Below, piece after piece: positions 33,413 to 56,813 of a stretch of 64,000 bases of DNA. Position 1 is the stretch's first letter. Each line of letters starts with the position of its first letter. Origin of the DNA: Bacillota bacterium (GTDB taxonomy: Bacteria; Bacillota_I; Bacilli_A; RF39; UBA660); the NCBI GenBank assembly GCA_023391185.1, contig JAEWBI010000020.1, positions 5,592-69,591 on the forward strand, read 5' to 3'. A model generated the notes under the pieces. The model was not told the origin of the DNA, searched no databases, and saw only the letters and a program-made list of their open reading frames with translations. Both the position numbers and the translations under genes were made by a program.

Positions 33413-33439
33413 CATTTACAAGAAAAAATAATTGTAAAT
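33413..33439. promoter_or_regulatory. Perfect 8-bp inverted repeat ATTTACAA-N10-TTGTAAAT, about 50 bp upstream of the plus-strand gene at 33490. Candidate operator.
   Basis: Seen directly in the 400-bp divergent intergenic region between the TetR/ABC operon and the first gene of the SipW/TasA-like locus. Confidence 0.3.
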
Positions 33440-33489
33440 ACCAAGAAGAAAAGATATAATTATATTATAAAAGAAAGGGGCCTGCAATT

Positions 33490-34122
33490 ATGAACATAGT
33501 TAAAAAATTAAGATTTGTTATTGTTTTAATTTCATTTTCTATATGTCTTTGTTTCATGAGTACTACTTATTCAAAGTATGTAGCAGGTACAACAAGTGAT
33601 ATAGAAGTACTATTTGCTAAGTGGCAGATACTTGTTAACGATGTAGATATAACTAGTAACACTAGCTCAACTGTTTCTTTTATTCCAACTATTGAGGCAA
33701 ACGAGTATGTAGCTTCAAATAAGCTTGCTCCAACTTCAAAAGGTTACTTTGATATTAATATTGATCCAACAAATGTTGATGTATCATTTAAATATACAAT
33801 AAATTTAAATGTTCTAAATGAAAATATTCCAGATTTAATGATTACAAAATATGCTATACTACCTGAAAATTTTATTGAAGGTGATCCTCTTGATTTAATC
33901 ACCCTTAATGGTTCAACAATAACAAATACTTTTAACTATGATAAAGGAATTGAAAATTTTAGTTTTAAAGCATTTACTATTAGAGTTTTCTTTGAATGGT
34001 ATGAAGGTACTGAAGAAAGTATGAATAATGAACAAGATACTAATATCGGTGAAACTGCTGTTACTGAGGACACAAAGTTCCAAATGAGTGCAAACATTGC
34101 ATTTGAGCAAATATTTAACTAA
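33490..34122 (+). CDS. Small secreted protein with a SipW-cognate-like signal, TasA-family-like.
   Basis: A 210-aa protein. The N-terminal TM is followed by TTYSKYVAGTTSD, to be compared with the TasA/CalY motif GGGT-x-A-x-F-x-D. The downstream segment LAPTSKGYFDINIDPTNVDVSFKYTINL resembles the TasA stretch LKPGD...F.F.N.G. Confidence 0.5.
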   Translation: MNIVKKLRFVIVLISFSICLCFMSTTYSKYVAGTTSDIEVLFAKWQILVNDVDITSNTSSTVSFIPTIEANEYVASNKLAPTSKGYFDINIDPTNVDVSFKYTINLNVLNENIPDLMITKYAILPENFIEGDPLDLITLNGSTITNTFNYDKGIENFSFKAFTIRVFFEWYEGTEESMNNEQDTNIGETAVTEDTKFQMSANIAFEQIFN

Positions 34123-34152
34123 GAATAACATGTACATGATACATTTCCTAAA

Positions 34153-34205
34153 AAGAGAACTTAAGTTCTCTTTTTATGTGCATGAAAAAAGACATTAATT
34201 AATGT
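34153..34205. terminator. Two adjacent hairpins between convergent genes: aaaagagaacTTAAgttctctttt and aagacattaATTAAtgtctt.
   Basis: Perfect inverted repeats with flanking A/T runs, sitting between the stops of gene 33490-34122 (+) and gene 34213-35445 (-). Confidence 0.6.
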
Positions 34206-34212
34206 CTTTAGT

Positions 34213-35445
34213 TTATTCTAAATTAACTTTTGAAGCAATAATAACTGGAACTACATTACATACAGTTTCTTTTGCTTCTCCATAAACTTTAGATATAATA
34301 TCATCAATTTTTTTTGCTGCATAACCTGAAGAAACATTATACTCAGAATTTGTCCAATAACAATTAGCAGTTGATAAGTAACTAAATTTATCATTATGAT
34401 AACCATAGTATCCATTATAAGTTGCTGTCTTAGTAAGTTCTGATGTCATTCGATTAGCATATTTCAAATTACCTGCTACGACATTGGAGATGCCGCTTCT
34501 TACTAAATTGGTATCCATAATATCTGTCGATATAACTCCCATAATATCACCTGCAGTTAATTCCCTTGTTGGTACCGTCCAACCATTAGTAACACTTGCT
34601 AATAACGAAGAATAGTCATTAAATGATCCTGTAGCATATGTATTTTTAGGATTAGGTAATAGAGTTACTGTATCGTCACCTAATGTATTATTTTTATCTA
34701 ATACATAAGTTGCTATACAATTATCACCTATTTCTGAACATTTTTTATTATTAACTACATCATATAAAACTGTATCTCCTAAATTATAACGCGTATCACT
34801 TGAACTGTATCCACCAGCGTATTGTTCTGCCATGATTTTTATTACAATTTGAATTGATGACTTAATTTGATAGTTAGGGTCATTTTGCTTAAGTTCTAAC
34901 TCACTTTTGTCAAACTGATATGCTTTAGTTCCCCATAAACTATCAAAAGCATCATCACCTGAATCAAGTGGCCAAGATATTGAAACTTCAAAATAACTCT
35001 CTCCACCTTTAGATAATATATAGTTCTTACTTAAATTCATATTAATGTGAAATGGATAATTATGCGATAAAACATCACCAATATAATCTGAATCAATAGT
35101 GCCTTCATTTACCACAAAATTATTTTCTGCATCACCAAGTAATCTTGCTGACTCGATTGAGTAATTAAGTTCAGCATCAGAATCGCCCAAATTCTTGATA
35201 TTAATCATTTCGTGAGATGTTTCCATACCTGGATATATATCTGAAAGTGATATAACAACCTCATTTGAAACAGGTTGACCATCTTTATTTAATTCAATAT
35301 ACCATGCTTTAACACCTATTTCTGCAGACACATCAGCTAAACCACTATATGCAAACCAGGCAAGTGTTACAGATATAAATGAAACTACAATAAAAACTAA
35401 AGACATTAAGTTTAGTTTTAAATAAAGTTTGTGCTTTTCTTCCAT
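34213..35445 (-). CDS. TasA/camelysin (CalY, peptidase M73)-like secreted protein with a SipW-cognate-like signal.
   Basis: A 410-aa protein. Signal-anchor, then TLAWFAYSGLADVSAEIGVKAW...VISLSDIYPGMETSHEMINIKNLGDSDAEL. This parallels the TasA stretch AFNDIKS...ASVNLSNLKPGDKLTKDFQFENNGS. Confidence 0.55.
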   Translation of the reverse strand: MEEKHKLYLKLNLMSLVFIVVSFISVTLAWFAYSGLADVSAEIGVKAWYIELNKDGQPVSNEVVISLSDIYPGMETSHEMINIKNLGDSDAELNYSIESARLLGDAENNFVVNEGTIDSDYIGDVLSHNYPFHINMNLSKNYILSKGGESYFEVSISWPLDSGDDAFDSLWGTKAYQFDKSELELKQNDPNYQIKSSIQIVIKIMAEQYAGGYSSSDTRYNLGDTVLYDVVNNKKCSEIGDNCIATYVLDKNNTLGDDTVTLLPNPKNTYATGSFNDYSSLLASVTNGWTVPTRELTAGDIMGVISTDIMDTNLVRSGISNVVAGNLKYANRMTSELTKTATYNGYYGYHNDKFSYLSTANCYWTNSEYNVSSGYAAKKIDDIISKVYGEAKETVCNVVPVIIASKVNLE

Positions 35446-35472
35446 TTATATCACCTCAACTAATTTAATATT

Positions 35473-36054
35473 TTAACTTTTTGAATTTGATCTTCTTTTT
35501 TCTTCTTTTGCTAGTAAAACAGAGATAAATTCATTACCAATAACAAATATTAACGGTAGGATTATAAATAAATAAAATCCTATCTTTGTACCAACAATTT
35601 TATATATTAATGAAAGCGTTACAACTCTGTATTTTACAACTCCATATAACTGGCTTTCATAAACTATAGGATCTTCAACTATATTAGTTAATCCTTTAGA
35701 ATGGAAAATATAATCTCCATTTTCATCCTTATTAATCTCTACAACTTCATGTGTAATAATCTTGTCTTTAAAACTTCCACTCTTGCCTAAATAACTAATA
35801 GTATCCCCAACTTTAATCTCAGATGGTTCAACTTCCTTTGAAACTAGAACGTCTCCTATTTTGTATCTAGGTTCCATACTTCCTGAAATTACTGTAAACA
35901 TTCTATAATTGAAGAATGATAACTTATTATCACTAAAACGTTGTAAAAATACAACAAGTATAAATGCGATTACTAAAAATATTACAATTGCATTTAATAT
36001 TTTACTAATAATATTTATTATCTTATTTTCTTTTAATTGCTTAATTAAATTCAT
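35473..36054 (-). CDS. sipW: SipW-type (ER/archaeal-type) signal peptidase I.
   Basis: A 193-aa protein with an N-terminal TM, catalytic box VISGSMEPRY, HEVV, and a C-terminal TM (IGFYLFIILPLIFVIG). This is the architecture of SipW rather than the P-type SipS/T. Confidence 0.8.
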   Translation of the reverse strand: MNLIKQLKENKIINIISKILNAIVIFLVIAFILVVFLQRFSDNKLSFFNYRMFTVISGSMEPRYKIGDVLVSKEVEPSEIKVGDTISYLGKSGSFKDKIITHEVVEINKDENGDYIFHSKGLTNIVEDPIVYESQLYGVVKYRVVTLSLIYKIVGTKIGFYLFIILPLIFVIGNEFISVLLAKEEKRRSNSKS

Positions 36055-36063
36055 TTTTTTTAC

Positions 36064-37200
36064 CTACAAATAATCTTGTGTCCTTTCTAAATATTCATCT
36101 ATCGCGCTTTTAAATTTATCTTTAATATCTGCGCTACCTACTAAGACCTTATTTTTTTCGTCTTTTATTTCAGCTGTAACCATGCTAAGTATTTGTTCCT
36201 CTGTAATTTTAATTCCACTGTTTAACATAAGCATGACTACTCTTTGCAATTGCTGCTTTATCATAATAGCAGCATATTTTTTCAATTGTTCTTTTTCTTT
36301 TCTTTTAGATGCATAAATAGAATCCAGAACAAAATAATCCATCAAAAATGAATCATCCAAAATACCTTTTAATACATCATTACCTGTACTATCTGAACTA
36401 TCGCTAGAATCAGATAAATTCTCATCATAAGTCTGTAAAAATGTCCATAATTTTGTTGCTACTTGAAAATTAGGATTCTTTAAAATTAGGTTTGTCTTTT
36501 TAATTGGTGGAATTACAAATGGGACATGAAGTTTATTTAAAGCTTTTATCATTTCACTTCGTTGCCACCCAGTAAGATAATCCTTAACTCTTTTAAGTCT
36601 TTCCTTAATTTTTTGTATTTCTTTTTTAAACTCTGATATATTTTGACCTTCAGGTAATTCTTCTAGTGAAACTTTAAATTCAATACTTACTTTTTCTCTA
36701 GAAGTTTTTGTTGAACCTGCATATTCTAAAGTTTTGGTGCTTTTTGCTTCAATGTCATCAAGCATAGCCTGTTTTTTTAAAACAAAGCGGTTCATAGTAT
36801 CTATTAATGTATAAAGAAACCTATTCTCATAAGTATTATAGGTTTCTTCAGGAAATGTTATAAATAGTTTAGATGGTTCAACATCTTCAGTCTGTTCATT
36901 AATTTTATCAATAAAATGTGTATGTCTAGTTAAGTGTTTTACACTATCTACACTAGTTTTTTTTGCTTTTTCTATTTTTACTATAGCAGACTCAGTATAT
37001 AGTGCCACTTTAGCTCTAACAACAATATTTTCAAGATATGGACAAGCATATTCAAGTTCTTCTAGCCAATTTAAAGACATTAGTTCACTTTCAAAATCTG
37101 ATTTGAAATACATTTCTGATTTCAGATTTTTTTTAAATTGTTCACTTTTTTTATTTAACTCTGCATCTACTTTAATTCTTGATTGCCTTGCCATATACAT
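36064..37200 (-). CDS. Hypothetical cytoplasmic protein, encoded directly downstream of the McrB-like AAA+ gene (the McrC-position partner).
   Basis: A 378-aa protein with no TM. It is K/E-rich with an SDSSDSSDS run. Only 10 nt separate it from the upstream gene. No convincing PD-(D/E)xK motif was seen by eye. Confidence 0.4.
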   Translation of the reverse strand: MYMARQSRIKVDAELNKKSEQFKKNLKSEMYFKSDFESELMSLNWLEELEYACPYLENIVVRAKVALYTESAIVKIEKAKKTSVDSVKHLTRHTHFIDKINEQTEDVEPSKLFITFPEETYNTYENRFLYTLIDTMNRFVLKKQAMLDDIEAKSTKTLEYAGSTKTSREKVSIEFKVSLEELPEGQNISEFKKEIQKIKERLKRVKDYLTGWQRSEMIKALNKLHVPFVIPPIKKTNLILKNPNFQVATKLWTFLQTYDENLSDSSDSSDSTGNDVLKGILDDSFLMDYFVLDSIYASKRKEKEQLKKYAAIMIKQQLQRVVMLMLNSGIKITEEQILSMVTAEIKDEKNKVLVGSADIKDKFKSAIDEYLERTQDYL

Positions 37201-37210
37201 TCACCACTCT

Positions 37211-38752
37211 CTAAAATGACTTCTTAAGTCTTTCTAAATATTGAATACATTCAGACATTGATTCATCTCCAAATGTCTTATGCAAATACTTTATAAAAGG
37301 ATCAATTTCATCACGTATTAATGAAATATTTAACTGATCAAATTTACGAAATATCTTCTTTGAAATAAAATAATCAATACCATCAACTTCTTTACCACCA
37401 CATGAAACATAAACTGGTACAAAGGCATTTAATTGTTTCATAATACGATTACCGAACGCTACGCGGAAATGATTGATAACATAAAGTTCCATATCTTGTA
37501 TTTTTTCAATTGATTTTGCGCTAACTGGTTTGTCTTCTTGAGCCTTTTTAAATAGTGATTCAAGATAACTTGAATTGATACTCATAGCTTCTTGTTCTCT
37601 ACTCTTAAATGGATCACAACGAGTATTGATATCAATTGGCATTGCACGGTCATAAACTTTATCTGTAACCATAAAAGTTGAATCATCATTATTGATTGTT
37701 CCAATATACCACAAATTGCCAGGTAATTTAAGTTTACCATCTACAATTCTTTCAGGATCATCTGCCCAACCACTTGATACAACAGGAATAATCCACTCTT
37801 CTCTAGAAGGCATTTCAAGAATTGAAAGCATCTCAGCGAAATAATATTCAACACGCGCGATATTCATTTCATCTAGAATAATTGTATGAATATCATCATC
37901 TAGACTAGCAACATAAAGTTCTACCAAAACTTTTGTTTCATTAAACTTTTTAGTGAACTCATTGAAGTACCCTATTAATTCTGTTTTATCTCTCCAAGAA
38001 GGTTCTACTGAAGCAACGCAAGAATCTTTATTTATAAATTTTCCCCATGCATATGCAAGTGAAGTCTTACCTGTTCCAGAAATACCTTGTAAAATTATTA
38101 ACTTACCAGAAGCTAATCCAGCAATAAATGCTCTTAAAAGTCCTGGTTCATAGTATAAGTGCAATTGTGTTGCCGAAAAGCAACGAAAGTTATCAACTAA
38201 TTCTTCCAGAGTAAGATTGTTATTGTAATTTTTAGGTTTAAATCCTTTGAATCTCCTATCAATACTACATAACATAGGGAATCTAGAATTAATACCTGCT
38301 AATTCATCTGCATCTAAATCTTCTTCCTCTGATAAGTTATCGCTCTCTTCTTTTTCTTTATCATCTGGTTTTAATCCTAGTTGCGAAACTTTCATAGCCA
38401 TAATTTCATCTTTTTCTTTCATAAGTTTCGCAACTTGATCATTTAAATCTGATATTTCATTTAATAAATCTTCTTGATTCATTCTCTTTTTACCTAGTTT
38501 AAAGAAACGCATTAATCGTGTAACTATTAAAAAGATTACTAAACCTACAATTATAACAAGGACTGCAACTAATATCCATAACAATATCCATTCGCCCTCT
38601 TGAAAACTTCCCTTATAACTATTTACTATCTTTAAGTATGATTTAATACTAAACATTTGGGCTAATCCTTCACCTATAGCCTTTATAATGAATAATAAAC
38701 CATCGAAAAATATTGAAATAAATTCATAGAAAAATCTTAAAAACGTATTCAT
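37211..38752 (-). CDS. Membrane-anchored McrB-family AAA+ (GTPase-type) protein.
   Basis: A 513-aa protein with an N-terminal ~80 aa carrying two TM helices, then a coiled coil. Walker A is ILQGISGTGKTS and Walker B is IILDEMNIARVEYYFAEMLSILE. The McrB-signature-like segment is YIGTINNDDSTFMVTDKVYDRA (cf. McrB GTMNTADRS...D.A.RRRF). The ATGA overlaps the upstream SipW-fusion gene. Confidence 0.65.
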   Translation of the reverse strand: MNTFLRFFYEFISIFFDGLLFIIKAIGEGLAQMFSIKSYLKIVNSYKGSFQEGEWILLWILVAVLVIIVGLVIFLIVTRLMRFFKLGKKRMNQEDLLNEISDLNDQVAKLMKEKDEIMAMKVSQLGLKPDDKEKEESDNLSEEEDLDADELAGINSRFPMLCSIDRRFKGFKPKNYNNNLTLEELVDNFRCFSATQLHLYYEPGLLRAFIAGLASGKLIILQGISGTGKTSLAYAWGKFINKDSCVASVEPSWRDKTELIGYFNEFTKKFNETKVLVELYVASLDDDIHTIILDEMNIARVEYYFAEMLSILEMPSREEWIIPVVSSGWADDPERIVDGKLKLPGNLWYIGTINNDDSTFMVTDKVYDRAMPIDINTRCDPFKSREQEAMSINSSYLESLFKKAQEDKPVSAKSIEKIQDMELYVINHFRVAFGNRIMKQLNAFVPVYVSCGGKEVDGIDYFISKKIFRKFDQLNISLIRDEIDPFIKYLHKTFGDESMSECIQYLERLKKSF

Positions 38753-41001
38753 ACTTCCTCACTCCCAAAATCCCCAACTTTATTAGATATATCTTCATAA
38801 ATTACTTTTTCTTTAAGATCATCTGGTATTAGTGAAACAATTTCCGCCAAATTCTCTAATTTTTTATTAACAAAGATATAATCTGCTATATATATATTGC
38901 CACGGTCTTTTTCTTTAATATTGCTGTCTTTACTAAAAACTAAAGCAAACTTATATCCACTTTTTTTGATTTTTTTAATAAAAACCTTATGTTTCAATAG
39001 TTCTTGAAATGTTACTAAGATAGCTGTATTCTCTTTAGAATATTTATCTTCAATCATCTTTAGTAGTTTTTCAAATTTCTTTTCTTTATCATACAAAGTC
39101 TCTGGAATATGGAAAACATACTTTTTACCAAAATCAAATGTTGTCATATCATTAATTAGTTGAATTAATAATAAAGTCACTAATACAGATATTTTATCCT
39201 CAGCCACAATTCCTTGTTCATATGTTTTATCTATAACATATGAACTATATACTTTACTAAAAGAAATATTATGTTCTAATTTCAATCCATATATTTTATT
39301 TTTAGTTGCTATTTTTTCAATATTTAGATTAAATAAATTTGTCTCTAATTTTTCAATAAAACTTTTTAATAATTCAGCATATTTTTTTTGTATAATAATT
39401 ATTTGTTTAATTAATGTATCAATCTTGTATTCATCTAATTCCTTTGAATATCTAGTCAATAGTTTTTTATAAAAATCACGTCTTGGACCTATTTCTTCAA
39501 TTGAATCTTTGGCCTTTTCAATATTAGCTATCAACATAAATACTTGTGCGTATTCATTAACTATTGCTTCATACTTGCGATTAGAACCAGTATATTTCTT
39601 AACCAAACCAGTTGATACATTGTTAATTGTCTTTTCCAGTCTTAACATTAGACTTTTCTTACTTGTTTCACTACTATCTTCTTCATAGTAATTATAATAC
39701 TTAGCATCAATATAATTAATTGTGAAAGTATTCTTAATGTTATTTCTAATTCCTGTTTCACTAACTTTTACTTTATCACTATTTATTAAAACCTTTACTA
39801 AACGATTAATCTCTTCTTTTTTTATTAACATAGCAGTATCAATTATATTTTGATTTCCTTTTCTGTCTTTCAAAAAGTTTAGATTTATTTTAGTTAAGCT
39901 TGAATCTTCTAAAATAATTTCATCGTCTTCTTCTACATCTTTATTAATAACAGGAGTATTAGTTGAATCTGATTGTTTACTATTTTTCATATTATTTGCT
40001 ATTTCTAATAGTGCAGAGCTATCTAATTCAGATATATCTACAGAAATATTTCTATATAATAAAGTTTTATCTAAATTATCCTCATCTTCAACTATATTAG
40101 TTTTTTCAATTAATTCCTCTTTTTCAACTTTATATTTTTCATCAACTTCATCATTTACTGAAATTACTCTAAAGAATGAGGTTTTACCAAGTTCATTTTC
40201 TAAATCAGCTTCAGATATTTCATCATTTTTTTGACTCGAAATTTCTTTAACCTTTTCTTCTTTTATTTCAACCGGTATATCTTCTAACCTATTTGAAACA
40301 TTAGGAACTTCAACAATTTTTCTCTCAACTTTTACTTGTTTAGTTTGTTCTTTTGAAGCTTCTATTTTTTTTCTAGGATAAACAGACTTAATAAATTTTA
40401 AAACAACTGGTATTATTCTCTTTTCAAGTACTTCTGAAATTTCATTAACTAGCATTGTTTTAGGTTTGTTACTATTTTTCTTATCGTCTTCTTTATTTTT
40501 CTTAACAACTATACTAAATAAAACTAATGTAATTATTAGAGTTATTAATACTGCTGGGTTAAATATTGTCTTTCTTAAAATTCCAAAACCAGCTAATTTT
40601 GCAACTTTCTTTCCTACTATTTGACTTTGATCTATTGGATCATCTTTTGTATTATTAGCATCACCTTTTGTTACATAAGTTCCATTATAAACCTCTATAA
40701 TACGGTGTGTTACATACTCTCCATCAATTTCATATGTTACAATATCATTTAATTTAACGTCTTGTGTTATTTTGGTAATAATCCAATCACCAGCACTTAT
40801 TTCTTTTTCCATACTGCCTGTTTGAACTTCAAATATTGAATATCCAAAAAAGTCAGTATAATTTTTATTCATTATTTTAGTTTGTATGCCTGTATATATT
40901 GTTACTAATAAAATAATTCCAAATATACCTATTAATATATTCAATAAAAAATTTATTATTTTTTCAATTATATTTATTTTTTTGGAATCGATATTTACCA
41001 C
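38749..41001 (-). CDS. SipW-type signal peptidase I domain fused to a ~550-aa C-terminal (predicted cytoplasmic) K/E-rich domain.
   Basis: A 750-aa protein. It has an N-terminal TM, catalytic boxes FEVQTGSMEKEI, VTHRIIEV and TKGDANNTKDDP (boxes B, D and E of S26 peptidases), a second TM (VLITLIITLVLFSIVV), and then a long hydrophilic extension. Confidence 0.65.
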   Translation of the reverse strand: MVNIDSKKINIIEKIINFLLNILIGIFGIILLVTIYTGIQTKIMNKNYTDFFGYSIFEVQTGSMEKEISAGDWIITKITQDVKLNDIVTYEIDGEYVTHRIIEVYNGTYVTKGDANNTKDDPIDQSQIVGKKVAKLAGFGILRKTIFNPAVLITLIITLVLFSIVVKKNKEDDKKNSNKPKTMLVNEISEVLEKRIIPVVLKFIKSVYPRKKIEASKEQTKQVKVERKIVEVPNVSNRLEDIPVEIKEEKVKEISSQKNDEISEADLENELGKTSFFRVISVNDEVDEKYKVEKEELIEKTNIVEDEDNLDKTLLYRNISVDISELDSSALLEIANNMKNSKQSDSTNTPVINKDVEEDDEIILEDSSLTKINLNFLKDRKGNQNIIDTAMLIKKEEINRLVKVLINSDKVKVSETGIRNNIKNTFTINYIDAKYYNYYEEDSSETSKKSLMLRLEKTINNVSTGLVKKYTGSNRKYEAIVNEYAQVFMLIANIEKAKDSIEEIGPRRDFYKKLLTRYSKELDEYKIDTLIKQIIIIQKKYAELLKSFIEKLETNLFNLNIEKIATKNKIYGLKLEHNISFSKVYSSYVIDKTYEQGIVAEDKISVLVTLLLIQLINDMTTFDFGKKYVFHIPETLYDKEKKFEKLLKMIEDKYSKENTAILVTFQELLKHKVFIKKIKKSGYKFALVFSKDSNIKEKDRGNIYIADYIFVNKKLENLAEIVSLIPDDLKEKVIYEDISNKVGDFGSEEV

Positions 41002-47039: not shown

Positions 47040-48707
47040 TTAACCTTTTTTAATAAGTTTATCTACTTGCGTAATAAACCAAATTTTTTCTATTGTTGTT
47101 TCACTATTTTCAATCTCTTTTATTCTTAAAATAAAATCAATTTTATTAGATAATGTACTTAAGTCATTAGGATTCAAATCATCTTCAGTTATATTTATAT
47201 TGTTAAGTCTATACTTATTAACAATAATTCTTGCGATATTATTATCACTAAAAACACTTAAACTATTAGTAATAACATTAGTTGGATCCTTTGCAAACGA
47301 GTCAAAATCATCACTATGTTTAATTATTTCATCATAATTAGATAGATTAAATACTTTTCTAATAGCTATTTTTTTGAAATAATCAAAACTATAGTATATA
47401 TTTAAAAATTCTGATACTGTAAGTGTTTTACTTAAAATAGAAACAATTTTTTTCTTAAAATATAACTCTTCAGACTCTTTATATAATTGATATAGTTCTT
47501 GTGCTAAATTTATAGAATCAATTTTCATTTGTCTTAATGAAGTTGCAGAAGAAACTGCTTTCCCAGGTATTTTAATACCAAATATTGCTTTGGTATCATT
47601 TCCCATAATAGATTTATTAATTTTTTCCAATTTTGCTTCTTTCTCTGCAATATGCTCTTCAATACTTTTACTATTAGTATTTCCAGAACTACTTCCCTTT
47701 GTAGTTGAAGTAACTTCTGGCACTATAGATTTTTCGAATTCTAATTTAAAATTATTTATTAACGGAGTGCAATCTACATAGTTTTTATACTCATTAATAT
47801 TTCTTCGTAATTTTTCTAAATTATCATAGAATTTCTTTGAAGAGTTTTCATCTTCCATATCGAATTTATCAATCATCATATTGTTATAAATAGAAATTCT
47901 AGTTTTGTTATTAGGAAAAAAAGTATTAATATCAACTGCGCCTGACTTAGCAAGATCAACTATATCATTAATTGTTTCTCTATTATCATTTTTGATTTTA
48001 TTGTATGCAACTTTTAGCTTATCAATACAATCTGAGTAACTAGTAACATGATTTTTTTCTTTGATCTTATTTTGAAGATCTGTTATATATGAATTGAAAG
48101 CTTTTTCATTTTTTTTAATTAATTTTCTGAAATTTAATTCAATATGATTAATTATATCAGGATTAACCCAATATATTTTTTCAAAAATATCAGCAATCTT
48201 GTCGTAATTACTACTTCCTTCATTTCTAATTTCTAAAAATGCCGTCATATATTCATTAACATAGCAAGTATAGGTAAAATCTTTCTTGCTAAGTTTTATA
48301 CCAGCTAACTCAAATTTTTCTAAAAATTGACTTATAAATTCATTTACAGAATTGAAATTCAAATCATTATAATTACCTATTTGATATAACAATTCATCTA
48401 ATTTCATCTTTTCTAAAAAAGTATTTGTTGGATTTAATATAAATCTAACTTCCTCTAATACATCTATTTTGTTTTCTAATTCCTCTTTTGAGTTTTCAAC
48501 TTCTTTAATATTAAAACTTCTACTTTTTGCTTCTATATATTTTTTCACACTAGTTTTATAGTCAATATATTTTTCCGAAATAGAATCTATTTTCTCGTTA
48601 AACTTCTTAATATCTCTCTTTGTTTTAGTTGGCAAAGTGGAAATCAATATTTTTTTAGCTTCAATGTCTTCTTCAATAAAATTTAAAAAATTACTCATCT
48701 TTACCAC
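47040..48707 (-). CDS. Hypothetical cytoplasmic coiled-coil-rich protein, last gene of the paralog operon.
   Basis: A 555-aa protein with no TM or signal. There is a 17-nt overlap with the upstream small ORF. Confidence 0.45.
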   Translation of the reverse strand: MVKMSNFLNFIEEDIEAKKILISTLPTKTKRDIKKFNEKIDSISEKYIDYKTSVKKYIEAKSRSFNIKEVENSKEELENKIDVLEEVRFILNPTNTFLEKMKLDELLYQIGNYNDLNFNSVNEFISQFLEKFELAGIKLSKKDFTYTCYVNEYMTAFLEIRNEGSSNYDKIADIFEKIYWVNPDIINHIELNFRKLIKKNEKAFNSYITDLQNKIKEKNHVTSYSDCIDKLKVAYNKIKNDNRETINDIVDLAKSGAVDINTFFPNNKTRISIYNNMMIDKFDMEDENSSKKFYDNLEKLRRNINEYKNYVDCTPLINNFKLEFEKSIVPEVTSTTKGSSSGNTNSKSIEEHIAEKEAKLEKINKSIMGNDTKAIFGIKIPGKAVSSATSLRQMKIDSINLAQELYQLYKESEELYFKKKIVSILSKTLTVSEFLNIYYSFDYFKKIAIRKVFNLSNYDEIIKHSDDFDSFAKDPTNVITNSLSVFSDNNIARIIVNKYRLNNINITEDDLNPNDLSTLSNKIDFILRIKEIENSETTIEKIWFITQVDKLIKKG

Positions 48708-48873
48708 CCACCTTTTCTTCCTCTATTACAATTTTTGCTTCTTCTAAAAATTGCGTGAAGTCTATAATATCTTCATAAACTTTTACTAATTCTTCTAAAG
48801 TAAGAGTTGATAAATCAAAATTAACTGTTTTTTCTTCTTTCTTCATAATATCACCCTTTTTCTTCTTATTCAT
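48691..48873 (-). CDS. Small acidic hypothetical protein (60 aa), translationally coupled on both sides.
   Basis: It overlaps the upstream paralog by 8 nt and the downstream gene by 17 nt. It may not be a real gene. Confidence 0.3.
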   Translation of the reverse strand: MNKKKKGDIMKKEEKTVNFDLSTLTLEELVKVYEDIIDFTQFLEEAKIVIEEEKVGGKDE

Positions 48874-50029
48874 AGCCAGCTAAATCTTTAATAAAGTTGA
48901 TTGAAATTAATATTTCAGCACCCTTTGAATTGACCTCTAGACTATCTAGATCTTGTCCTTCAATCCATACATATACTCTAAGTTTTGTTATTCCATCGGG
49001 TAATGAAAATATTGATTTTTCAAAATCTTTAATAGTATTTTGCAATGAAAAATGTGCAGTATCAAGAGGGATTCCTGACCCCTCTTGTCCATTAATGAAT
49101 TCAAGTTTTTTTCCTTCCGAAATTATTGCGTAAGTTGGAAAAAATGTACCATCATTTAGTTCTAATTTATAATCTTCTTTTATTCTTTCAAAAGAAGTCT
49201 CGGAATGTTTGTCACTATTTGGTTCATAAATTGACATTTGACAATCATTATTACACTCTATATTTTGAATTGTATTAACATCAGCTTTATTTGAAACAGT
49301 TCCAACTTTTACAAATCCAAAACGCATAGAATTCATTATGCCAGATAATTCTTCTGCTACATCTTCAGGGGTATCTTCGTCTAAGTCTACTTTTGTTTCA
49401 TCTAAATATAAATTATCAGGAATTGGAGAACCACTTACATTCTTTAGAAAAACATCAAATGCAATATAAGAATTCGCACTATTTGGTTTATCTTCTTTTA
49501 GTTTTATCGTACTCAGTGTTTTTCTTCCTGTAAGCTTACTTTTTAAACGGCTAACTTGTCCTTGATAGACACTAAATTTATCATCATTATTGCTGGCTAT
49601 TCCATTACTAGATACCGGCCATAAACCAGAACTAGCCCACTGATTAGTATTATTCGGATATACAGCCTCTAAGTCGTTTATTACAGAATCCAATGATATA
49701 ACTATATCTTCTGTGAATTTAACTCCATCTAATGAAATAAATAAACCACTATCACTAGAAACAACAACATTTAGAGACTTAACTTTAACATTAACGTTAA
49801 CAGATAGCCATGCATATGTTGAAACTGTAAAAACTATGCCACTAAAGAATGTAACTAAAACTAAAATTCTCGAACTTATTTTTTTTGATTTTTCTTTATT
49901 TTGTGTGTTTTCTTTAGTTTTTTTATTGCTAACTACTTTTTTTCTATTGGTGCTTGATTTTTTCTTAACGTTGGTTTTAATCTTTTTTTTATCGTTTTTT
50001 TCTTTCACAAGCCACCTCCTAAAACCCAA
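48866..50029 (-). CDS. Secreted paralog E of the STYAW(F/L) SipW-cognate-signal family (divergent, Lys-rich N-terminal tail).
   Basis: A 387-aa protein with ...FTVSTYAWLSVNVNVKVKSL.VVVSSDSGLFISLDG... and C-terminal motif LRVYVWIEGQDLDSLEV. Confidence 0.5.
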   Translation of the reverse strand: MGFRRWLVKEKNDKKKIKTNVKKKSSTNRKKVVSNKKTKENTQNKEKSKKISSRILVLVTFFSGIVFTVSTYAWLSVNVNVKVKSLNVVVSSDSGLFISLDGVKFTEDIVISLDSVINDLEAVYPNNTNQWASSGLWPVSSNGIASNNDDKFSVYQGQVSRLKSKLTGRKTLSTIKLKEDKPNSANSYIAFDVFLKNVSGSPIPDNLYLDETKVDLDEDTPEDVAEELSGIMNSMRFGFVKVGTVSNKADVNTIQNIECNNDCQMSIYEPNSDKHSETSFERIKEDYKLELNDGTFFPTYAIISEGKKLEFINGQEGSGIPLDTAHFSLQNTIKDFEKSIFSLPDGITKLRVYVWIEGQDLDSLEVNSKGAEILISINFIKDLAGYE

Positions 50030-51313: not shown

Positions 51314-52009
51314 CTACTTATTAGTTATTTGTGAATTAAATTCCATATGCATTGTGATTTCTCCACCCAAGATGTTATCAGTACATTCCATATCATTTCC
51401 CTCTAACCACACTACAATTGTATATTTATTAATATCTCCTGGTTTAAAATTTTCAACATGCTCTTGCATAATTAGTTCATCGCTTTTAAATGCAACAGTT
51501 CCCTTTTCGGGATTAATACCATCATTTGATACTTTAGCATAAGTAGTATAACTACCATTTCTATATAGACGAATTCTAACTACATTATCAAGTCCTTTAA
51601 TAGCATCATCAATAAACATTTCTGACCAATAATCTGTTATATCTACACCTGTATTTTCAATATAAAATGTATATGCCATATAATTATCGCCATTATGCTC
51701 ACCATCATATGCATCTAAATCTGCTGGAAGCCATTTTTCAGCCATATTATCAAAATAAGGTAATGTTTTCATGAATAATTCTGATCTATAAACTTTATAA
51801 TTAGGATCATCATACACTATTAAACTTCTTTGAGTGTATAAGTTTTTATCTAGTGTAATTGTAAAATTACCATTACTATAAATTAAACTAACGACTACAT
51901 AAGAAATAAGCAACATTAAAAACAAAAATAAAATACTTAATTTTAATAATCTTCTTACTTTCTTCTTTGATTTACGTTTTTCAACATTATTCTTTATTTT
52001 CACTTCCAT
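51314..52009 (-). CDS. Divergent, short paralog F (membrane-anchored; lacks the STYAWF motif but retains the C-terminal ...VVWLEGNDMEC... motif).
   Basis: A 231-aa protein. The N-terminal TM is LLKLSILFLFLMLLISYVVV. The segments VRIRLY and YTIVVWLEGNDMECTDN align with LR(V/I)YVYIEGQD(I/V)DNYD of the other paralogs. Confidence 0.45.
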   Translation of the reverse strand: MEVKIKNNVEKRKSKKKVRRLLKLSILFLFLMLLISYVVVSLIYSNGNFTITLDKNLYTQRSLIVYDDPNYKVYRSELFMKTLPYFDNMAEKWLPADLDAYDGEHNGDNYMAYTFYIENTGVDITDYWSEMFIDDAIKGLDNVVRIRLYRNGSYTTYAKVSNDGINPEKGTVAFKSDELIMQEHVENFKPGDINKYTIVVWLEGNDMECTDNILGGEITMHMEFNSQITNK

Positions 52010-52074: not shown

Positions 52075-52110
52075 ATTATAATTGTACCATAATACGACAA
52101 AATGTCAATA
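52075..52110 (-). promoter_or_regulatory. SigmaA-type promoter (TTGACA-N16-TGgTACAAT) for the F-D-E-60aa-555aa operon.
   Basis: The reverse complement of 52081-52108 is ttgacattttgtcgtattatggtacaat. The same box architecture recurs upstream of paralogs C and A. Confidence 0.5.
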
Positions 52111-52206: not shown

Positions 52207-52210
52207 TTAC

Positions 52211-53470
52211 TTAATCTGCTGGTGTATAATCTGAACTTTCACCTTCAAGTCCAGCTGGACCATCATAATTAATATCTTCATCAGTAAATCTTTCTTTAGT
52301 GAATCCGAAATTAACTGATATTTTTTTACCAATTGAAGCAAAATCATAATTATCTATGTCTTGACCTTCAATATAAACATAAATTCTTACTTTAGTAATA
52401 CTGTTTGGTGCAAGTGTCATAAATGTTTGTCTATTTGTTCCTGTGTCTTTTTTCATTGTATCAGTAAAATAAGGAAATTTCATTAACTTAGTAGTAGCAG
52501 CGTAAGTATTATACTCAATACCATCATAAATATCTACATTGTCAGAAGAAGATATTGGTTCTTTAACTGCGTATGTTGGATAAGCAACAGTACTTAATAA
52601 TGTATTGCAAGGACCACTATATGAACCAGATAAAGTTACATCTGCCCCTGTTCTTGCTCTACAAGAATTTGTGTACCAACTAAGTGCATTATTTTCGTGT
52701 TTAGTATCATTTGGTTCCCAAATTTGTGCATCTCTACAAATTCCTGTTGTAATTAAGTTTTCATCTTCATCAGTTGTATTATTACATGAAATTCCTCCAA
52801 TAATAGAAGTACTTGTTTCTGTACCAATAACACGACCTACTTGAGCAAAAGCTACTCTTACAGAATTTTCAATGCCTGTATTTTCTACACCAGTAGACGC
52901 TACTGAAACAGCTGAATTTCTTGTTAAATAAATTGCTTCTTCATCTGCTGGATTTAAAGTTGGTATATACTGTGTCCCTGAATAGTTTTTAATGAATAAA
53001 TCAAAAGCTACATATCCTTCAACTTCAGGAGCACCAGGTGTGACATTGTTTGCCATCCTGCTTGCCATAATTCTATATCCCCCACTAGTTGTAGTAAAGC
53101 TGGCTTTTTCATATAAAACCATTCTTGAATTAGCCTCATCCATCTCACCTATTGATGATACTGGTATAAGACCTGCCCCACCCCAACTATTAGTATTGTT
53201 AGCGTATGAAGCTGATTTATAATTACTTTGCGTAATAGTAACACTTTCACTCCAAGCTTGTCCATCTAATGATAATGACAAACTATCTGCTGCTTTTATT
53301 TCAACATCAAAATTTGAAACATTAACAGTTCTCATACCTACAAACCACGCATATGTTGACATTAAAAGTGCTATTCCAGATAATGAAAGCATCATCACAA
53401 TAATTCTAACACGTTTAATATGGCTATTTTGTTTGTTAAACATAAAACATTTCCTTCTTTCCTGAGACAT
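52211..53470 (-). CDS. Secreted paralog C of the STYAWF SipW-cognate-signal family.
   Basis: A 419-aa protein with MSTYAWFVGMRTVNVSNFDVEI, ENSVRVAFAQVGRV, ICRDAQIWEPNDTKH and VRIYVYIEGQDIDNYDFASIGKKISVNFGFTKERF. Confidence 0.6.
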   Translation of the reverse strand: MSQERRKCFMFNKQNSHIKRVRIIVMMLSLSGIALLMSTYAWFVGMRTVNVSNFDVEIKAADSLSLSLDGQAWSESVTITQSNYKSASYANNTNSWGGAGLIPVSSIGEMDEANSRMVLYEKASFTTTSGGYRIMASRMANNVTPGAPEVEGYVAFDLFIKNYSGTQYIPTLNPADEEAIYLTRNSAVSVASTGVENTGIENSVRVAFAQVGRVIGTETSTSIIGGISCNNTTDEDENLITTGICRDAQIWEPNDTKHENNALSWYTNSCRARTGADVTLSGSYSGPCNTLLSTVAYPTYAVKEPISSSDNVDIYDGIEYNTYAATTKLMKFPYFTDTMKKDTGTNRQTFMTLAPNSITKVRIYVYIEGQDIDNYDFASIGKKISVNFGFTKERFTDEDINYDGPAGLEGESSDYTPAD

Positions 53471-53524
53471 TAAAAGAATGCAAGACTATAGTAAATTTAC
53501 TTTTACTATGCTACTTTAATATAC

Positions 53525-53560
53525 AATAATATTGTAACATATTGTAGAAATAAGTCAATA
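53525..53560 (-). promoter_or_regulatory. SigmaA-type promoter (TTGACT-N17-TGtTACAAT) for paralog C.
   Basis: The reverse complement of 53531-53559 is ttgacttatttctacaatatgttacaat. This is paralogous to the promoters at 52075-52110 and 56780-56813. Confidence 0.45.
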
Positions 53561-53590
53561 TAATTACATTTTTTAAACCTAAAATATAAT

Positions 53591-53622
53591 AAAAAAAGTA
53601 ATCACTTAAATGATTACTTTTT
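53591..53622 (-). terminator. Rho-independent terminator after paralog B.
   Basis: Hairpin aagtaatcaCTTAAAtgattactt followed by a T-run on the minus strand. Confidence 0.6.
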
Positions 53623-53647
53623 AGTTTTATTTTGTAATTGACAAAAA

Positions 53648-55267
53648 TTATTCTACTATAATTGTTCTAGTCTTTGTTGCAGTATTTCCAGATGCATCTT
53701 TTACTGTATAAACTTTATAATAAGTTCCTGCTTTATTAGTATTTACTGTTCCTGTTACAATAACACTTCCAGTAACATCGTTAGAAGTTTCAGCATCTAT
53801 TTTGTCACTTGCAGAGAAGCCAGGTTCAACATATGCTTCACCTAATGCTAAATTAACTGTTGAAGATCCTGGTGTTGTACCATCTTCTAAAGTTATAACT
53901 GGTGCAGTTATATCACTACCATTTGGCCCTTCACCTTGATTTAAATTTGGTCCTTCATACTTAATATCATCTTCAGTATATCTTTCTTTAGTGAATCCAA
54001 ATTTAACTGAAATCTTTTTACCAATTGAAGCAAAGTCATAGTTATCTACGTCTTGTCCTTCAATATATACATATACTCTTAATTTAGTAACACTATTTGG
54101 AGCTAATGACATAAATTGTGGACGACTAGTTCCTGTCAATAACTTCTTTGTATCAGTAAAGTAATTATATGAATATAATAAATCTTTACCATCTTGTACA
54201 GGATCTACTAATGTTGCTAAAGAACTAGCAACAGTTCCTGTAAATGTATTATATGCAGCTCCGTCATATACATCTACTGCATCAGCAGAAGTAATAGCTT
54301 TTCTAACTGCATATGTTGGATATGCTATACCATCAATAACTTCATTACATGCAATTGCTTTATCGTATGAAGCAGCTGATGCTGTTGCACCAATTCTCTT
54401 ACGACAAGAAGTACTATACCAACTAATTGCATTAACATTATGGTTTGTATCATTTGGTTCCCAAATTTGAGCAGTTCTACATAATCCAGTAACATCAGTA
54501 TCTGTTGTACAAGTTATTCCTTGAATTAATGAAACTGCTGCAGCTTGACCATCTCCTGCAGTACGTGCTGTTTCAGCTGTTGTACCAATTACACGTCCTA
54601 TTTGAGCAAAACCTACTCTAACAGAGTTTTCAATACCAGTACCATCAACACCACCTGCTGTTGAAACTTTAACAGAAGAATCATTAGTTAAATAAATTGC
54701 TTCTTCATCTGCTTGGTTTTCACCAACTATGTATTGAGTTCCAGAAAAGTTTCTAACAAATAAATCGAATACTACATATCCGTCTTGTTCTGAACTACCT
54801 ACTTCATAGTTTTTAACACGGCTTGCTAAAAGTCTATATCCACCATTTGTAGTAGTCAAACTTGCTTTTTCAAATAACATCATTCTTGATGCATTTGTGT
54901 CCATTTGACCAATTGAAGACATAGGTATTAAACCTTCAGTTGTCCAACTATTAGTATTAGTGGCATATTCTGTTTCTATTTGTTGTAAAGTTGCTTCATC
55001 AAATTTAATAGTTGATCCCCAGTTTTTACCATCAAAAGATAACCATAAACTTTCTGTACCAGCTATCTCAACATCAAAACTTTGAACATTAACAGTTCTC
55101 ATACCAATAAACCATGCGTATGTCGATACTGATAATATAATAGCAGACATCGCAACTACAAATATAAGATTTCTAGTACGTTTTCTACTTCTGATATTTT
55201 GTCTAGGCATATTATTTTCCTCCTTATATATTTGTGTGACTTTTATATATTTATTATTATAAACCAA
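53648..55267 (-). CDS. Secreted paralog B of the STYAWF family, with an extra C-terminal Ig-like (DUF5011-like) domain.
   Basis: A 539-aa protein. The core matches paralogs A, C and D (VSTYAWFIGMRTVNVQSFDVEI...LRVYVYIEGQDVDNYDFASIGKKISVKFGFTKERY). The extra C-terminal ~90 aa (PVITLEDGTT...LALGEAYVEPGFSASD...VTGTVNTNKAGTYYKVYTVKDASGNTATKTRTIIV) has the pattern of bacterial Ig-like DUF5011 domains. Confidence 0.6.
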   Translation of the reverse strand: MVYNNKYIKVTQIYKEENNMPRQNIRSRKRTRNLIFVVAMSAIILSVSTYAWFIGMRTVNVQSFDVEIAGTESLWLSFDGKNWGSTIKFDEATLQQIETEYATNTNSWTTEGLIPMSSIGQMDTNASRMMLFEKASLTTTNGGYRLLASRVKNYEVGSSEQDGYVVFDLFVRNFSGTQYIVGENQADEEAIYLTNDSSVKVSTAGGVDGTGIENSVRVGFAQIGRVIGTTAETARTAGDGQAAAVSLIQGITCTTDTDVTGLCRTAQIWEPNDTNHNVNAISWYSTSCRKRIGATASAASYDKAIACNEVIDGIAYPTYAVRKAITSADAVDVYDGAAYNTFTGTVASSLATLVDPVQDGKDLLYSYNYFTDTKKLLTGTSRPQFMSLAPNSVTKLRVYVYIEGQDVDNYDFASIGKKISVKFGFTKERYTEDDIKYEGPNLNQGEGPNGSDITAPVITLEDGTTPGSSTVNLALGEAYVEPGFSASDKIDAETSNDVTGSVIVTGTVNTNKAGTYYKVYTVKDASGNTATKTRTIIVE

Positions 55268-55313
55268 AAGGTTATACCTCTTGGTTTATAATAAAATTAA
55301 TTTAGTATTTTGA

Positions 55314-56618
55314 TTAATTAGATGGTGTACTTTCACCTTCAAGTTGATCTGGTCCATTATAACCAATATCACCTTTAACAAATCTTTCTTTAGATAATCC
55401 AAATGCAACTGATATTTTTTTACCAATTGAAGCAAAATCATAATTATCTACATCTTGACCTTCAATATATACATACACTCTTATTTTTGTAATACTATTT
55501 GGAGCTAATGTCATAAATGTTGGACGTTCCATTCCTGTTTTAGCTTTCATAGTATCAGTAAAGTATGGATAAGCATATAATGGTTTTCCTGTTAAAGTTG
55601 TAAGATCATTAGCTGTAGTTACAATATCAATATTTGTATTAGCATCATCATTAGAATAACTTTCTACAGTTTGTGTATAACCATTATAACCAACGCCATC
55701 ATAAATATCTACTTTTTCAATAGAATCAATTTTTTTAGTTATGGCATATGTTTTATAAGCATTAGGTTCAGCTACAGATCCACAACTTCCATATGAACCG
55801 TAAGTACCATCTGCATCTGCTCTTGCAGCACATGAAGTGTTATACCAGCTAATTGCAGCTGCTACATGCTTAGTATCATTTGGTTCCCAAATTTGAGCAG
55901 TTCTACAGATTCCTGTTACGCCAGCAGTTACTGTTCCTATTGCACCATTACATGAAATTCCTGTAATTTTAGCAGCATCCATTGATGTACCTTCAACACG
56001 CCCTATTTGTGCGAAAGCAACTCTAACTGAGTTTTCGATACCTGTATCTTTAACTCCACTATCTGCTACTTTTACAACAGAATCTTTAGTTAAGTAGATT
56101 GCTTCTTCATCTTCTTGATTTAATTCTTCAAGATATTGTGTTCCTGAATAATTTCTAACAAATAAATCGAATACTACATAACCATTTACCTCATCAGTAG
56201 GATTAAGATTATAAGCTATTTGACTAGACATAATTCTATAACCACCTGGAGTAGTTGTTAAACTTGCCTTCTCAAACATTTTCATTCTTGAATTTGTAAC
56301 ATCCATTTGTCCAATTGATGAAACTGGAATTAAACCTGTTCCGCCCCAACTATTTGTATTGTTAGTATAGGCATCAGCTTTATAGTTTGATTGATTAATT
56401 TCTAAAGTTTCAACCCATTTTGAGCCGTCTATTGAAAGTAATAAACTATCAGCGGCTTTGATTTGAACATCGAATGTTTCAACATTAACTGTTCGCATAC
56501 CAATAAACCATGCATATGTGGATACTGATAATATGACAGCAGACAATGTGAACATAACAATTAGATTTCTGACACGTTTAGCGTGTGCTTGTTTTTGCCT
56601 TTTTTGCATAAAATACAT
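55314..56618 (-). CDS. Secreted paralog A of the STYAWF SipW-cognate-signal family.
   Basis: A 434-aa protein with VSTYAWFIGMRTVNVETFDVQI, ENSVRVAFAQIGRV, ICRTAQIWEPNDTKH and IRVYVYIEGQDVDNYDFASIGKKISVAFGLSKERF. Confidence 0.6.
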   Translation of the reverse strand: MYFMQKRQKQAHAKRVRNLIVMFTLSAVILSVSTYAWFIGMRTVNVETFDVQIKAADSLLLSIDGSKWVETLEINQSNYKADAYTNNTNSWGGTGLIPVSSIGQMDVTNSRMKMFEKASLTTTPGGYRIMSSQIAYNLNPTDEVNGYVVFDLFVRNYSGTQYLEELNQEDEEAIYLTKDSVVKVADSGVKDTGIENSVRVAFAQIGRVEGTSMDAAKITGISCNGAIGTVTAGVTGICRTAQIWEPNDTKHVAAAISWYNTSCAARADADGTYGSYGSCGSVAEPNAYKTYAITKKIDSIEKVDIYDGVGYNGYTQTVESYSNDDANTNIDIVTTANDLTTLTGKPLYAYPYFTDTMKAKTGMERPTFMTLAPNSITKIRVYVYIEGQDVDNYDFASIGKKISVAFGLSKERFVKGDIGYNGPDQLEGESTPSN

Positions 56619-56779
56619 TTCCCTCTTTCCATTTAAACAATATCACAATAACATATGAAAGCAAGTAGTAATAATAACCCGGGCGTATTTTATTATTAAT
56701 TCTTACTTTTAACTTTCATATACAAACTAAAAGTACTCATATGTTTACATAGATACCTTCTATCTTATCGTAATATACA

Positions 56780-56813
56780 ATAAAATTGTACCATATAATA
56801 AAAAGAAGTCAAT
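56780..56813 (-). promoter_or_regulatory. SigmaA-type promoter (TTGACT-N16-TGgTACAAT) for paralog A (and probably B).
   Basis: The reverse complement of 56785-56812 is ttgacttctttttattatatggtacaat. Confidence 0.45.

Follow-up and report, generated by a model that had tools for sequence, protein, structure and literature searches.

A cluster of 17 genes, here called A to Q, occupies about 23 kb (33490-56618) of the 64,000-nucleotide stretch analysed (hereafter the window; Bacillota bacterium, GenBank assembly GCA_023391185.1, contig JAEWBI010000020.1, positions 5,592 to 69,591 of the forward strand). It encodes signal peptidases of the endoplasmic reticulum (ER) type beside ten predicted precursors that share a TasA-like cleavage box, and this gene content supports the existence of a dedicated, sortase-independent export system. 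That the same locus also assembles the exported proteins into a cell-surface polymer, either a fibre or a coat, is a further proposal to which we give an even chance. Almost every gene of the cluster is annotated as hypothetical, and full-text literature searches retrieved no description of such a system. Gene A is the only one on the plus strand, while B to Q all lie on the minus strand, and the window is AT-rich (22-34 % GC). The features are as follows (aa, amino acids; TM, transmembrane; the arrow marks the predicted cleavage point).

33490-34122, plus strand: A, 210-aa predicted exported protein (box TYS↓KY), lying at the end of the cluster
34213-35445, minus strand: B, 410-aa predicted exported protein of two domains, having box TLA↓WF and a C-terminal half without recognised type
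35473-36054, minus strand: C, ER/archaeal-type signal peptidase I (SipW-type) with two TM segments, a GSM Ser box and a TH His box
36064-37200, minus strand: D, 378-aa predicted cytoplasmic protein with a DUF2357 (McrC N-terminal-type) domain and no TM segment
37211-38752, minus strand: E, 513-aa membrane-anchored McrB-type AAA+ NTPase
38749-41001, minus strand: F, 750-aa protein, an ER-type signal peptidase domain (~1-147) fused to a predicted cytoplasmic domain of ~580 aa
41136-41669, minus strand: G, 177-aa signal-peptidase-like protein (192 aa if the upstream TTG at 41714 is used)
41738-42640, minus strand: H, 300-aa predicted exported protein with box TYG↓KY
42652-43203, minus strand: I, 183-aa predicted exported jelly-roll protein with box TYS↓FF
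43211-46909, minus strand: J, 1232-aa predicted exported protein whose box is TFA↓RF and which carries GLUG-type beta-helix repeats
47040-48698, minus strand: K, 552-aa conserved orphan, predicted cytoplasmic, with neither TM segment nor signal peptide
48866-50029, minus strand: L, 387-aa diverged O-family paralogue with box TYA↓WL and a very basic, predicted cytoplasmic tail of ~50 aa
50046-51299, minus strand: M, 417-aa O-family paralogue with box TYA↓WF
51314-52009, minus strand: N, 231-aa protein in which a basic N-terminus and a TM segment are accompanied by the conserved box YNSGNFSITLD
52211-53470, minus strand: O, 419-aa O-family paralogue with box TYA↓WF
53648-55267, minus strand: P, O-family paralogue (box TYA↓WF) bearing an immunoglobulin (Ig)-like surface domain at its C-terminus; 539 aa from a TTG, the true start possibly being M20
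55314-56618, minus strand: Q, O-family paralogue of 434 aa (box TYA↓WF), the gene with which the cluster starts
56785-56812, minus strand: promoter-like site upstream of Q (TTGACT-16-TACAAT with TG), a consensus match only

The export signal is common to the cargo proteins. A, B, H, I, J, L, M, O, P and Q each begin with a basic n-region, followed by one hydrophobic segment and then by the box, which reads TYSKY in A, TLAWF in B, TYGKY in H, TYSFF in I, TFARF in J, TYAWL in L and TYAWF in M, O, P and Q. When the first 90 residues of window open reading frames (ORFs) of at least 150 aa were scanned for the pattern [ST][YFWL][ASG]x[FYWL] placed right after a hydrophobic 15-mer, this pattern was found in 10 of 47, all ten lying within 33490-56618 and none among the remaining 37. 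An earlier note on this DNA had listed ten ORFs with a basic region, a helix and a box, and all ten are indeed present, with a box that is found in no other ORF of that set and that is conserved in their orthologues. Among orthologues from 72 related loci (see below), the box is the most regular feature of each of the A, B, H, I and J families: NTYSRY in A (n=12), an invariant TLAWFAYSG in B (n=8), [TS][YFL]AKY in H (n=37), GITYSxF in I and IP[ST][LF]AR[FY] in J (n=37). In the O family, S38, T39, Y40, A41, W42 and F43 are invariant or almost so. The site at which SipW cleaves TasA, TWA↓AF, combines Thr at P3, an aromatic residue at P2, a small residue at P1 and Phe at P2', and it is this P2' Phe that is poorly processed by the P-type peptidase LepB and handled by the ER-type SipW (PMC10269814). 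The boxes of the cluster match this signature, with the exception of B, which has Leu instead of an aromatic residue at P2.

The LPXTG motif is absent from every cluster protein and the sortase TLxTC motif from all ORFs of the window; the earlier statement that sortases and LPXTG motifs are missing, and that any fibres would be sortase-independent, is thus borne out, and sortase-dependent pili can be rejected on the same grounds. Type IV pili and type II pseudopili were also considered and rejected, because the box follows the hydrophobic segment whereas class III cleavage precedes the helix. Neither a prepilin peptidase nor GspE/PilB was matched by Pfam or NCBIfam models among the 17 proteins.

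Two enzymes that could process these precursors are encoded in the same cluster. C and F both pass TIGR02228 (78.6 bits, E 4.6e-22, and 60.1 bits, E 2.2e-16, respectively, for a cut-off of 51.85) but do not reach NF046067, the SipW equivalog model (69.6 and 50.0 bits for a cut-off of 190 bits), which indicates that they are enzymes of the same type as SipW without being its orthologues. Both families conserve GSM and TH(R/E), i.e., a Ser/His rather than a Ser/Lys dyad, and S63, H99, D114 and D120 are invariant in F orthologues. The best relatives of F in the PDB are human SEC11C and SEC11A (~1e-5), with weak matches to SipA/LepA also in the search results. The TM segments of F, at ~19-37 and 148-166, would by topology place its conserved tail of ~580 aa on the cytoplasmic side; no known relative of this tail was found.

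A third SipW-type peptidase had been counted in the earlier note, and in this respect the count has to be lowered to two. G, whose 177-aa gene call was taken from identical contigs, matches no hidden Markov model (HMM) of NCBIfam or Pfam, and its kinship with the peptidases emerges from profile-profile alignment with C (hhalign, 96.9 %) and from the TM-domain-TM topology common to both. The catalytic Ser of C aligns with a variable Asp in G, and the extracytoplasmic part of G has no conserved His in 27 orthologues. As both the catalytic Ser and a conserved His are missing, G is most likely a catalytically dead pseudo-peptidase. There is a precedent for such a protein in Streptococcus pyogenes, where SipA (LepA), an inactive signal-peptidase homologue encoded in a surface-polymer cluster, is essential for pilus polymerisation (PMC4049620). 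SipA differs from G in being P-type and in working with a sortase on LPXTG pilins, whereas G derives from the ER type and has neither sortase nor LPXTG proteins around it.

The cluster is conserved as a unit. A scan of one genome per GTDB species gave 238 confirmed matches, from which 72 distinct loci were kept, and gene order was determined by tblastn of the 17 window proteins, adjacencies being counted only where a locus had sufficient flanking DNA. Synteny extends to all 17 genes across the 72 loci, which come from metagenome-assembled genomes (MAGs) mostly labelled Bacilli, Mollicutes, Tenericutes or Bacillota and sampled from human, chicken and ruminant guts, rumen and anaerobic digesters. 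The gene next after N belongs to the O family in 58 of 60 loci, and L is followed by K in 42 of 47, J by I in 40 of 43, I by H in all 37 and H by G in all 25. On the other side of G, E is followed by D (8/8) and D by C (7/7), C by B in 7 of 9 loci, B by A in 7 of 8, and F by E in 7 of 11, three of the four exceptions to this last pair being split matches to F itself. Each locus holds one to six O-family paralogues. The cluster can be divided into three blocks, N with 1-6 O-type genes, L-K-J-I-H-G, and F-E-D-C-B-A, which have been reordered among genomes and are nonetheless still adjacent (loci L017, L043, L047, L056, L059, L060 and L064), and this permutation with retained adjacency argues for functional coupling of all three. 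At the DNA level, the window is ~90 % identical to the MAG contig JAEWOE010000006.1 ('Bacillota bacterium OH_SBlB_51'). Identical copies of E were found on metagenome contigs from ENA and Logan, where the gene order is unchanged and a TetR gene and two ABC-transporter genes come next. Of note, many loci (L002, L004, L006, L009, L012 and others) are labelled 'uncultured Muribaculaceae' or Ignavibacteriales; judged by gene content and relatives, these labels probably reflect errors of binning or taxonomy.

The O family provides the most numerous cargo, and O itself served as query for homologue searches and as the subject of the structure model. M, O, P and Q are 52-59 % identical pairwise, M being 52-57 % identical to the other three by blastp, while L is more distant (26-30 % identity to M, O, P and Q, E 1e-33 to 1e-39) and forms a separate orthologue in most loci. 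The family has more than 2090 database homologues, and 1692 clusters at 50 % identity match with E <= 1e-3, 289 of them at E <= 1e-30. Its core matches no Pfam family, 10 distant representatives included, and no Peptidase_M73 in particular; its profile gave no PDB match either. A C-terminal Ig-like domain (PF16403) is found in many, if not most, members, for instance at residues 467-538 of P (E 4e-18). In the AlphaFold2 (AF2) model of O (pLDDT 84, pTM 0.82), a helix at 11-45 is followed by a long first strand at 49-60 and then by a beta-rich body, and a low-confidence stretch (42-46) falls exactly at the box. Residues 31-60, which comprise the box and the first strand, are better conserved than the protein as a whole (3.6 bits versus an average of 3.06). 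Weak structural matches of this model include archaeal filaments built by donor strands: Saci_0406 of the Sulfolobus threads, AbpA of the Pyrobaculum bundling pili and CanX of the Pyrodictium cannulae, at ranks 1, 8 and 16.

N appears to be related to this family. It matches L by blastp (E 3.7e-4), and its C-terminal ~85 residues resemble the O-family C-terminus (hhalign 70 %, and 37 % without signal peptides), which makes N a candidate membrane anchor or nucleator. With its basic region and helix, it could be counted as an eleventh substrate, and at least 11 had indeed been proposed; its box (YNSGNFSITLD) is nonetheless of a different kind, so that ten substrates are firm.

The other cargo proteins raise the question of their relationship to TasA. 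I is the only one with detectable similarity to TasA/camelysin, and this similarity is weak and sub-threshold. Against Peptidase_M73 (PF12389), the window copy of I scores 18.9 bits for a gathering score of 22.5, 15 of 30 orthologues match at E < 0.1 (best 3.6e-6), and after removal of the signal peptide 4 of 10 orthologues still match the model, with 13-18 bits over ~40 residues. In precomputed data PF12389 is assigned to one orthologue (P0214), for which NCBI uses the name 'TasA family'. In a search of the PDB with the I family profile, the TasA structures 5of1 and 8aur appear at E 0.6-1, over the segment LKPGD..F.F.NN. It was this kind of segment (LKPGD...F.F.NNG) that had been matched to TasA by eye in three proteins of the cluster; for I the resemblance receives weak statistical support and for the others none. 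The suggested search with Peptidase_M73/TasA models had the same outcome, with weak similarity for I alone, 0 of 58 members of the A, B, H and N families matching and nothing in the O family. No other Pfam family was consistent in A, B, H and N, A having neither a Pfam nor an NCBIfam match and H no Pfam match.

A common TasA-like origin of all cargo was considered and rejected on the basis of profile comparisons. With signal peptides included, hhalign linked H to I at 95 %, A to I at 85 % and B to I at 74 %, but once the sequences had been trimmed through the predicted P1 residue, every pair fell to 18 % or less. The cargo families therefore have their signal peptide and box in common rather than a mature fold. 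The 18 % left between B and I lies over a 'PG...N.G' segment, and B has no match in Pfam or in a profile search of the PDB. By eye, its residues ~285-370 ('GWTVPTRELT...CYWTNSEY') resemble the lectin-like motif of the DUF1566/Lcl type (GW.LPT..EL...YWSS), which neither the Pfam nor the PDB searches reported. J, with its GLUG-type repeats, matches a putative IgA1 protease structure (PDB 3n6z, residues 358-461, E 4.3e-5) and is a candidate adhesin or tip component.

The model of I, built with database homologues, is a jelly roll whose helix is drawn by AF2 up to residue 29. Its 20 mature N-terminal residues are of low confidence and yet hold the invariant A42, F44 and F46, the segment IAKFVF remaining unpacked. 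An N-terminus that is conserved but unpacked in the monomer is the pattern expected of a strand that packs only in a polymer, and this extension is a candidate donor strand in the model. In TasA, the donor strand consists of residues 28-38, beginning at the cleavage site, with F29 as a contact residue (PMC9674648).

The non-exported components of the cluster include E, D, K and the tail of F. The N-terminus of E is invariant and precedes a TM segment (60-78), after which come a coiled region and an AAA+ domain (~196-404); the TM segment and coiled region stand in place of the DNA-binding domain of McrB. Its motifs, read from the sequence, are GISGTGKTS (Walker A), IILDEMN (Walker B) and the McrB-like GTINNDDS. 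E matches McrB (E 3.3e-6 against NF008457, far below the equivalog cut-off, and E 3.5e-5 against PDB 6hz4 over residues 196-404), and the AAA+ part (~185-321) matches the PADLOC candidate PDC-M26A far better than it does E. coli McrB (E 3.4e-35), so that the PDC-M26 family and the cluster ATPase appear to be close relatives. No mention of PDC-M26 was found in the literature. E has at least 8000 homologues, and its orthologues are all named 'hypothetical'. Its mean column identity, 76 %, is the highest of the six gene families with scored ortholog alignments, and identity among its orthologues amounts to 65-73 % in genomes whose cargo genes share 40-60 %.

D matches DUF2357 (PF09823) with 27.4 bits for a gathering score of 23.3. 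In McrC-like proteins, DUF2357 is located N-terminal to the nuclease; D gave no match to PD-(D/E)xK nuclease families in Pfam, to the PDB or to PADLOC. K, with a mean column identity of 63 %, has no PDB match and no consistent Pfam family, DUF2935 being reported in only 2 of 20 members. An in-frame stop in some K orthologues had suggested genetic code 4, a suggestion that was rejected since the TAG lies upstream of the true ATG. No PADLOC match was obtained for D, F, G, K or N, and a known defence system was likewise rejected, as the AAA+ domain of E alone matches a PADLOC candidate.

Comparison with known SipW systems clarifies what is shared and what is new. As with tapA-sipW-tasA of B. subtilis and sipW-tasA-calY of B. 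cereus, the box has Thr at P3, an aromatic residue at P2, a small residue at P1 and an aromatic residue at P2', and sortases play no part; I, modelled as a jelly roll, is a small cargo with an LKPGD..F.F.N segment, and in TasA it is the mature N-terminus that serves as donor strand. The B. subtilis operon comprises three genes, as compared with 17 here, where ten or eleven cargo proteins fall into at least six unrelated families and the major subunit belongs to a new family of ~400 aa that is not Peptidase_M73. The cluster also has two intact peptidases plus a degenerate one, with F fused to its 580-aa cytoplasmic domain, whereas tapA-sipW-tasA has no equivalents of the McrB-like E, the DUF2357 protein D, K or the F tail. 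Conversely, the cluster yielded no TapA homologue. The earlier description of the locus as a greatly expanded tapA-sipW-tasA-type system thus captures its export logic but not its composition: the cargo is no TasA/camelysin expansion, only the signal being shared, G is probably dead, and four extra components are present. In its pairing of peptidase and cargo the locus resembles tapA-sipW-tasA and the bsa operon of C. perfringens, and it could belong to the TasA/camelysin family at most through I. What separates it from these two systems is a new family of major subunits, how many and how diverse its cargo proteins are, the pseudo-peptidase and the four cytoplasmic or membrane components.

Another multi-cargo SipW operon of a Firmicute is sipW-bsaA-bsaB-bsaC of Clostridium perfringens, whose subunits, remotely related to TasA, polymerise by donor-strand exchange, and in which type IV pilus genes are needed for a cargo to be exported (PMC11580942). 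It thereby sets a precedent for SipW cargo coupled to an NTPase-driven apparatus. Searches of the present cluster revealed neither type IV pilus genes nor a von Willebrand factor A (vWA) protein or BsaA-type subunits; the NTPase is instead of the McrB type, membrane-anchored and encoded within the cluster itself. The pair E-D in turn recalls E. coli McrBC and PDC-M26, E sharing the McrB-type AAA+ motifs (GTGKT, ILDEMN, GTINNDDS) and D the DUF2357 domain of McrC-like partners; it departs from McrBC in the TM anchor and coiled region of E, in the lack of a detectable nuclease in D, in its position between signal-peptidase genes and in its high conservation.

If the locus does assemble a surface polymer, its parts could work together as follows. 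The ten precursors, i.e., the major subunits M, O, P and Q, the diverged L, the small proteins A, H and I, as well as B and J, would be inserted via Sec with their signal peptides N-in, and C and the peptidase domain of F would cut them at T-[YFL]-[ASG]↓x-[FYW]. Cleavage would free a conserved N-terminal strand of alternating hydrophobic residues, WFxGMRTVNVxxFDVEI in the major subunits and IAKFVF in I, which could then insert into the next subunit by donor-strand complementation as in TasA, major and minor subunits co-polymerising. N would be kept in the membrane as an anchor or nucleator, in a TapA-like role, and G may act, like SipA, as a chaperone or scaffold for the precursors. E, D, K and the F tail might carry out an NTP-dependent step on the cytoplasmic face, such as the extraction, ordering or gating of subunits, or the control of the peptidases.

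Several results weigh against such an assembly system. TIGR04088, a model of the SipW-cognate signal whose use had been recommended in the earlier note, matches neither the full proteins at E <= 0.01 nor nine isolated N-termini at E <= 10 (its presence in NCBIfam release 20 being assumed), and other NCBIfam models likewise gave no match to the isolated N-termini. Profile comparisons do not demonstrate homology between the mature domains of the different cargo families. Regarding the TasA-like jelly roll that had been raised as a question for the paralogues, the model of I has the jelly-roll fold but matches generic jelly rolls better than TasA, and that of O has no significant fold match. In four loci (L019, L023, L029 and L069), G is directly followed by A, with no F-E-D-C-B in the stretch examined, which suggests that the ATPase module may be separable or dispensable. 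A defence role for E is conceivable, as its AAA+ domain lies nearest to McrB and PDC-M26A. Finally, all relatives are uncultured MAGs.

Alternative explanations of the locus, partly compatible with one another and not all mutually exclusive, differ in what they make of these data. The same export logic could serve an S-layer-like two-dimensional coat, or secreted and surface proteins that act independently, with paralogues providing antigenic or functional variety, a possibility that we consider rather unlikely. It would account for the presence of one to six O-family paralogues per locus at 52-59 % identity, for the Ig-like surface domain at the C-terminus of many of them, for the absence of a significant match between the O model and any filament subunit and for cargo whose mature domains are mutually unrelated; the strong conservation just past the predicted cleavage point in every cargo family is, however, easier to understand if this segment is an interaction strand, the weak fold matches of O lean towards donor-strand subunits, and N, a truncated O-like membrane protein, suits the anchor of a polymer. 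It is highly unlikely, in our estimation, that the N-termini are uncleaved signal anchors of type-II membrane proteins and that the peptidase homologues serve other substrates or act as chaperones only. Conserved small residues at -3 and -1 and an aromatic residue at +2 fit signal-peptidase and TasA sites, the box lies within a low-confidence linker of the O model, and two peptidases, always present in the cluster, keep their Ser and His under strong conservation. The negative result with TIGR04088, the AF2 helix that runs on to residue 45 in O and to 29 in I, and the example of G, which shows that peptidase homologues of the cluster can lose catalysis, would nevertheless agree with uncleaved anchors.

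As for E and D, they could form an McrBC-derived defence or restriction module that merely sits in the operon and has no part in export. This would explain why E matches both McrB and PDC-M26A, why D has the DUF2357 typical of McrC-like partners and why some loci seem to be without F-E-D-C-B beside G. We nonetheless find it quite unlikely, because a conservation of 65-73 % for E as against 40-60 % for cargo is unusual for defence genes, a TM anchor replaces the DNA-binding N-domain of E, D has neither a nuclease domain nor a PADLOC match, and the two genes always lie between genes for two apparently active peptidases (F-E 7/11, E-D 8/8, D-C 7/7). At the other extreme stands the claim, stronger than that of polymer assembly as such, that the locus encodes an unrecognised Gram-positive surface-filament machine, in which subunits processed by the dedicated ER-type peptidases are extracted from the membrane and polymerised under the control of a membrane-anchored, McrBC-derived AAA+ motor (E-D), together with K and the F tail; we judge this unlikely. 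With the same low probability, such a machine would follow a logic like that of type IV pilus assembly with wholly different parts and would be widespread in uncultured Bacilli of guts, rumen and digesters.

Should the locus indeed assemble a surface polymer, this polymer would be the main surface structure of these Bacilli and a likely determinant of their adhesion, aggregation and interaction with the host. The SipW/TasA principle, i.e., a dedicated ER-type peptidase combined with a donor-strand polymer, would be extended to new subunit families, and E would be the first McrB-type AAA+ protein recruited to a cell-envelope process. For annotation, a simple rule can be proposed, namely the occurrence of T-[YFL]-[ASG]↓x-[FYW] after a hydrophobic helix, next to a TIGR02228 peptidase gene.

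Other features of the window concern expression and surroundings of the cluster. Promoter-like sites nearly identical to that of Q lie upstream of O (53531-53558) and of N (52081-52108), all following TTGAC[AT]-16-TACAAT with an extended -10 TG, and the occurrence of three such sites before Q, O and N suggests separate strong promoters for the major-subunit genes; as consensus matches only, promoter-like sites are in total not above the shuffled expectation. No paralogues of cluster proteins were found elsewhere in the window. Beyond A, the minus strand carries a TetR-family regulator (32480-33091) and two genes for ABC transporters with fused membrane and ATPase domains (the three genes spanning 28436-33091; Pfam assignments from identical contigs), all of which are outside the conserved cluster in other genomes.

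On the opposite side of the cluster, an ORF at 57061-57606 (181 aa) starts abruptly and resembles, by eye, the C-terminal part of a D-Ala-D-Ala carboxypeptidase. Between collinear blocks of the window (56988-57606) and of the 90 %-identical locus L001 (5050-6471), the latter has ~1.4 kb where the window has 83 bp, so that a deletion in the window appears to have truncated this gene. Just upstream of the cluster, a plus-strand ORF of 478 aa (58025-59461) with a 'YMRVSTEDQ' motif at its N-terminus and a Cys-rich middle resembles, by eye, a large serine recombinase; since L001 has it too (collinear block 57071-59454), it did not arise by a recent insertion in the window alone.

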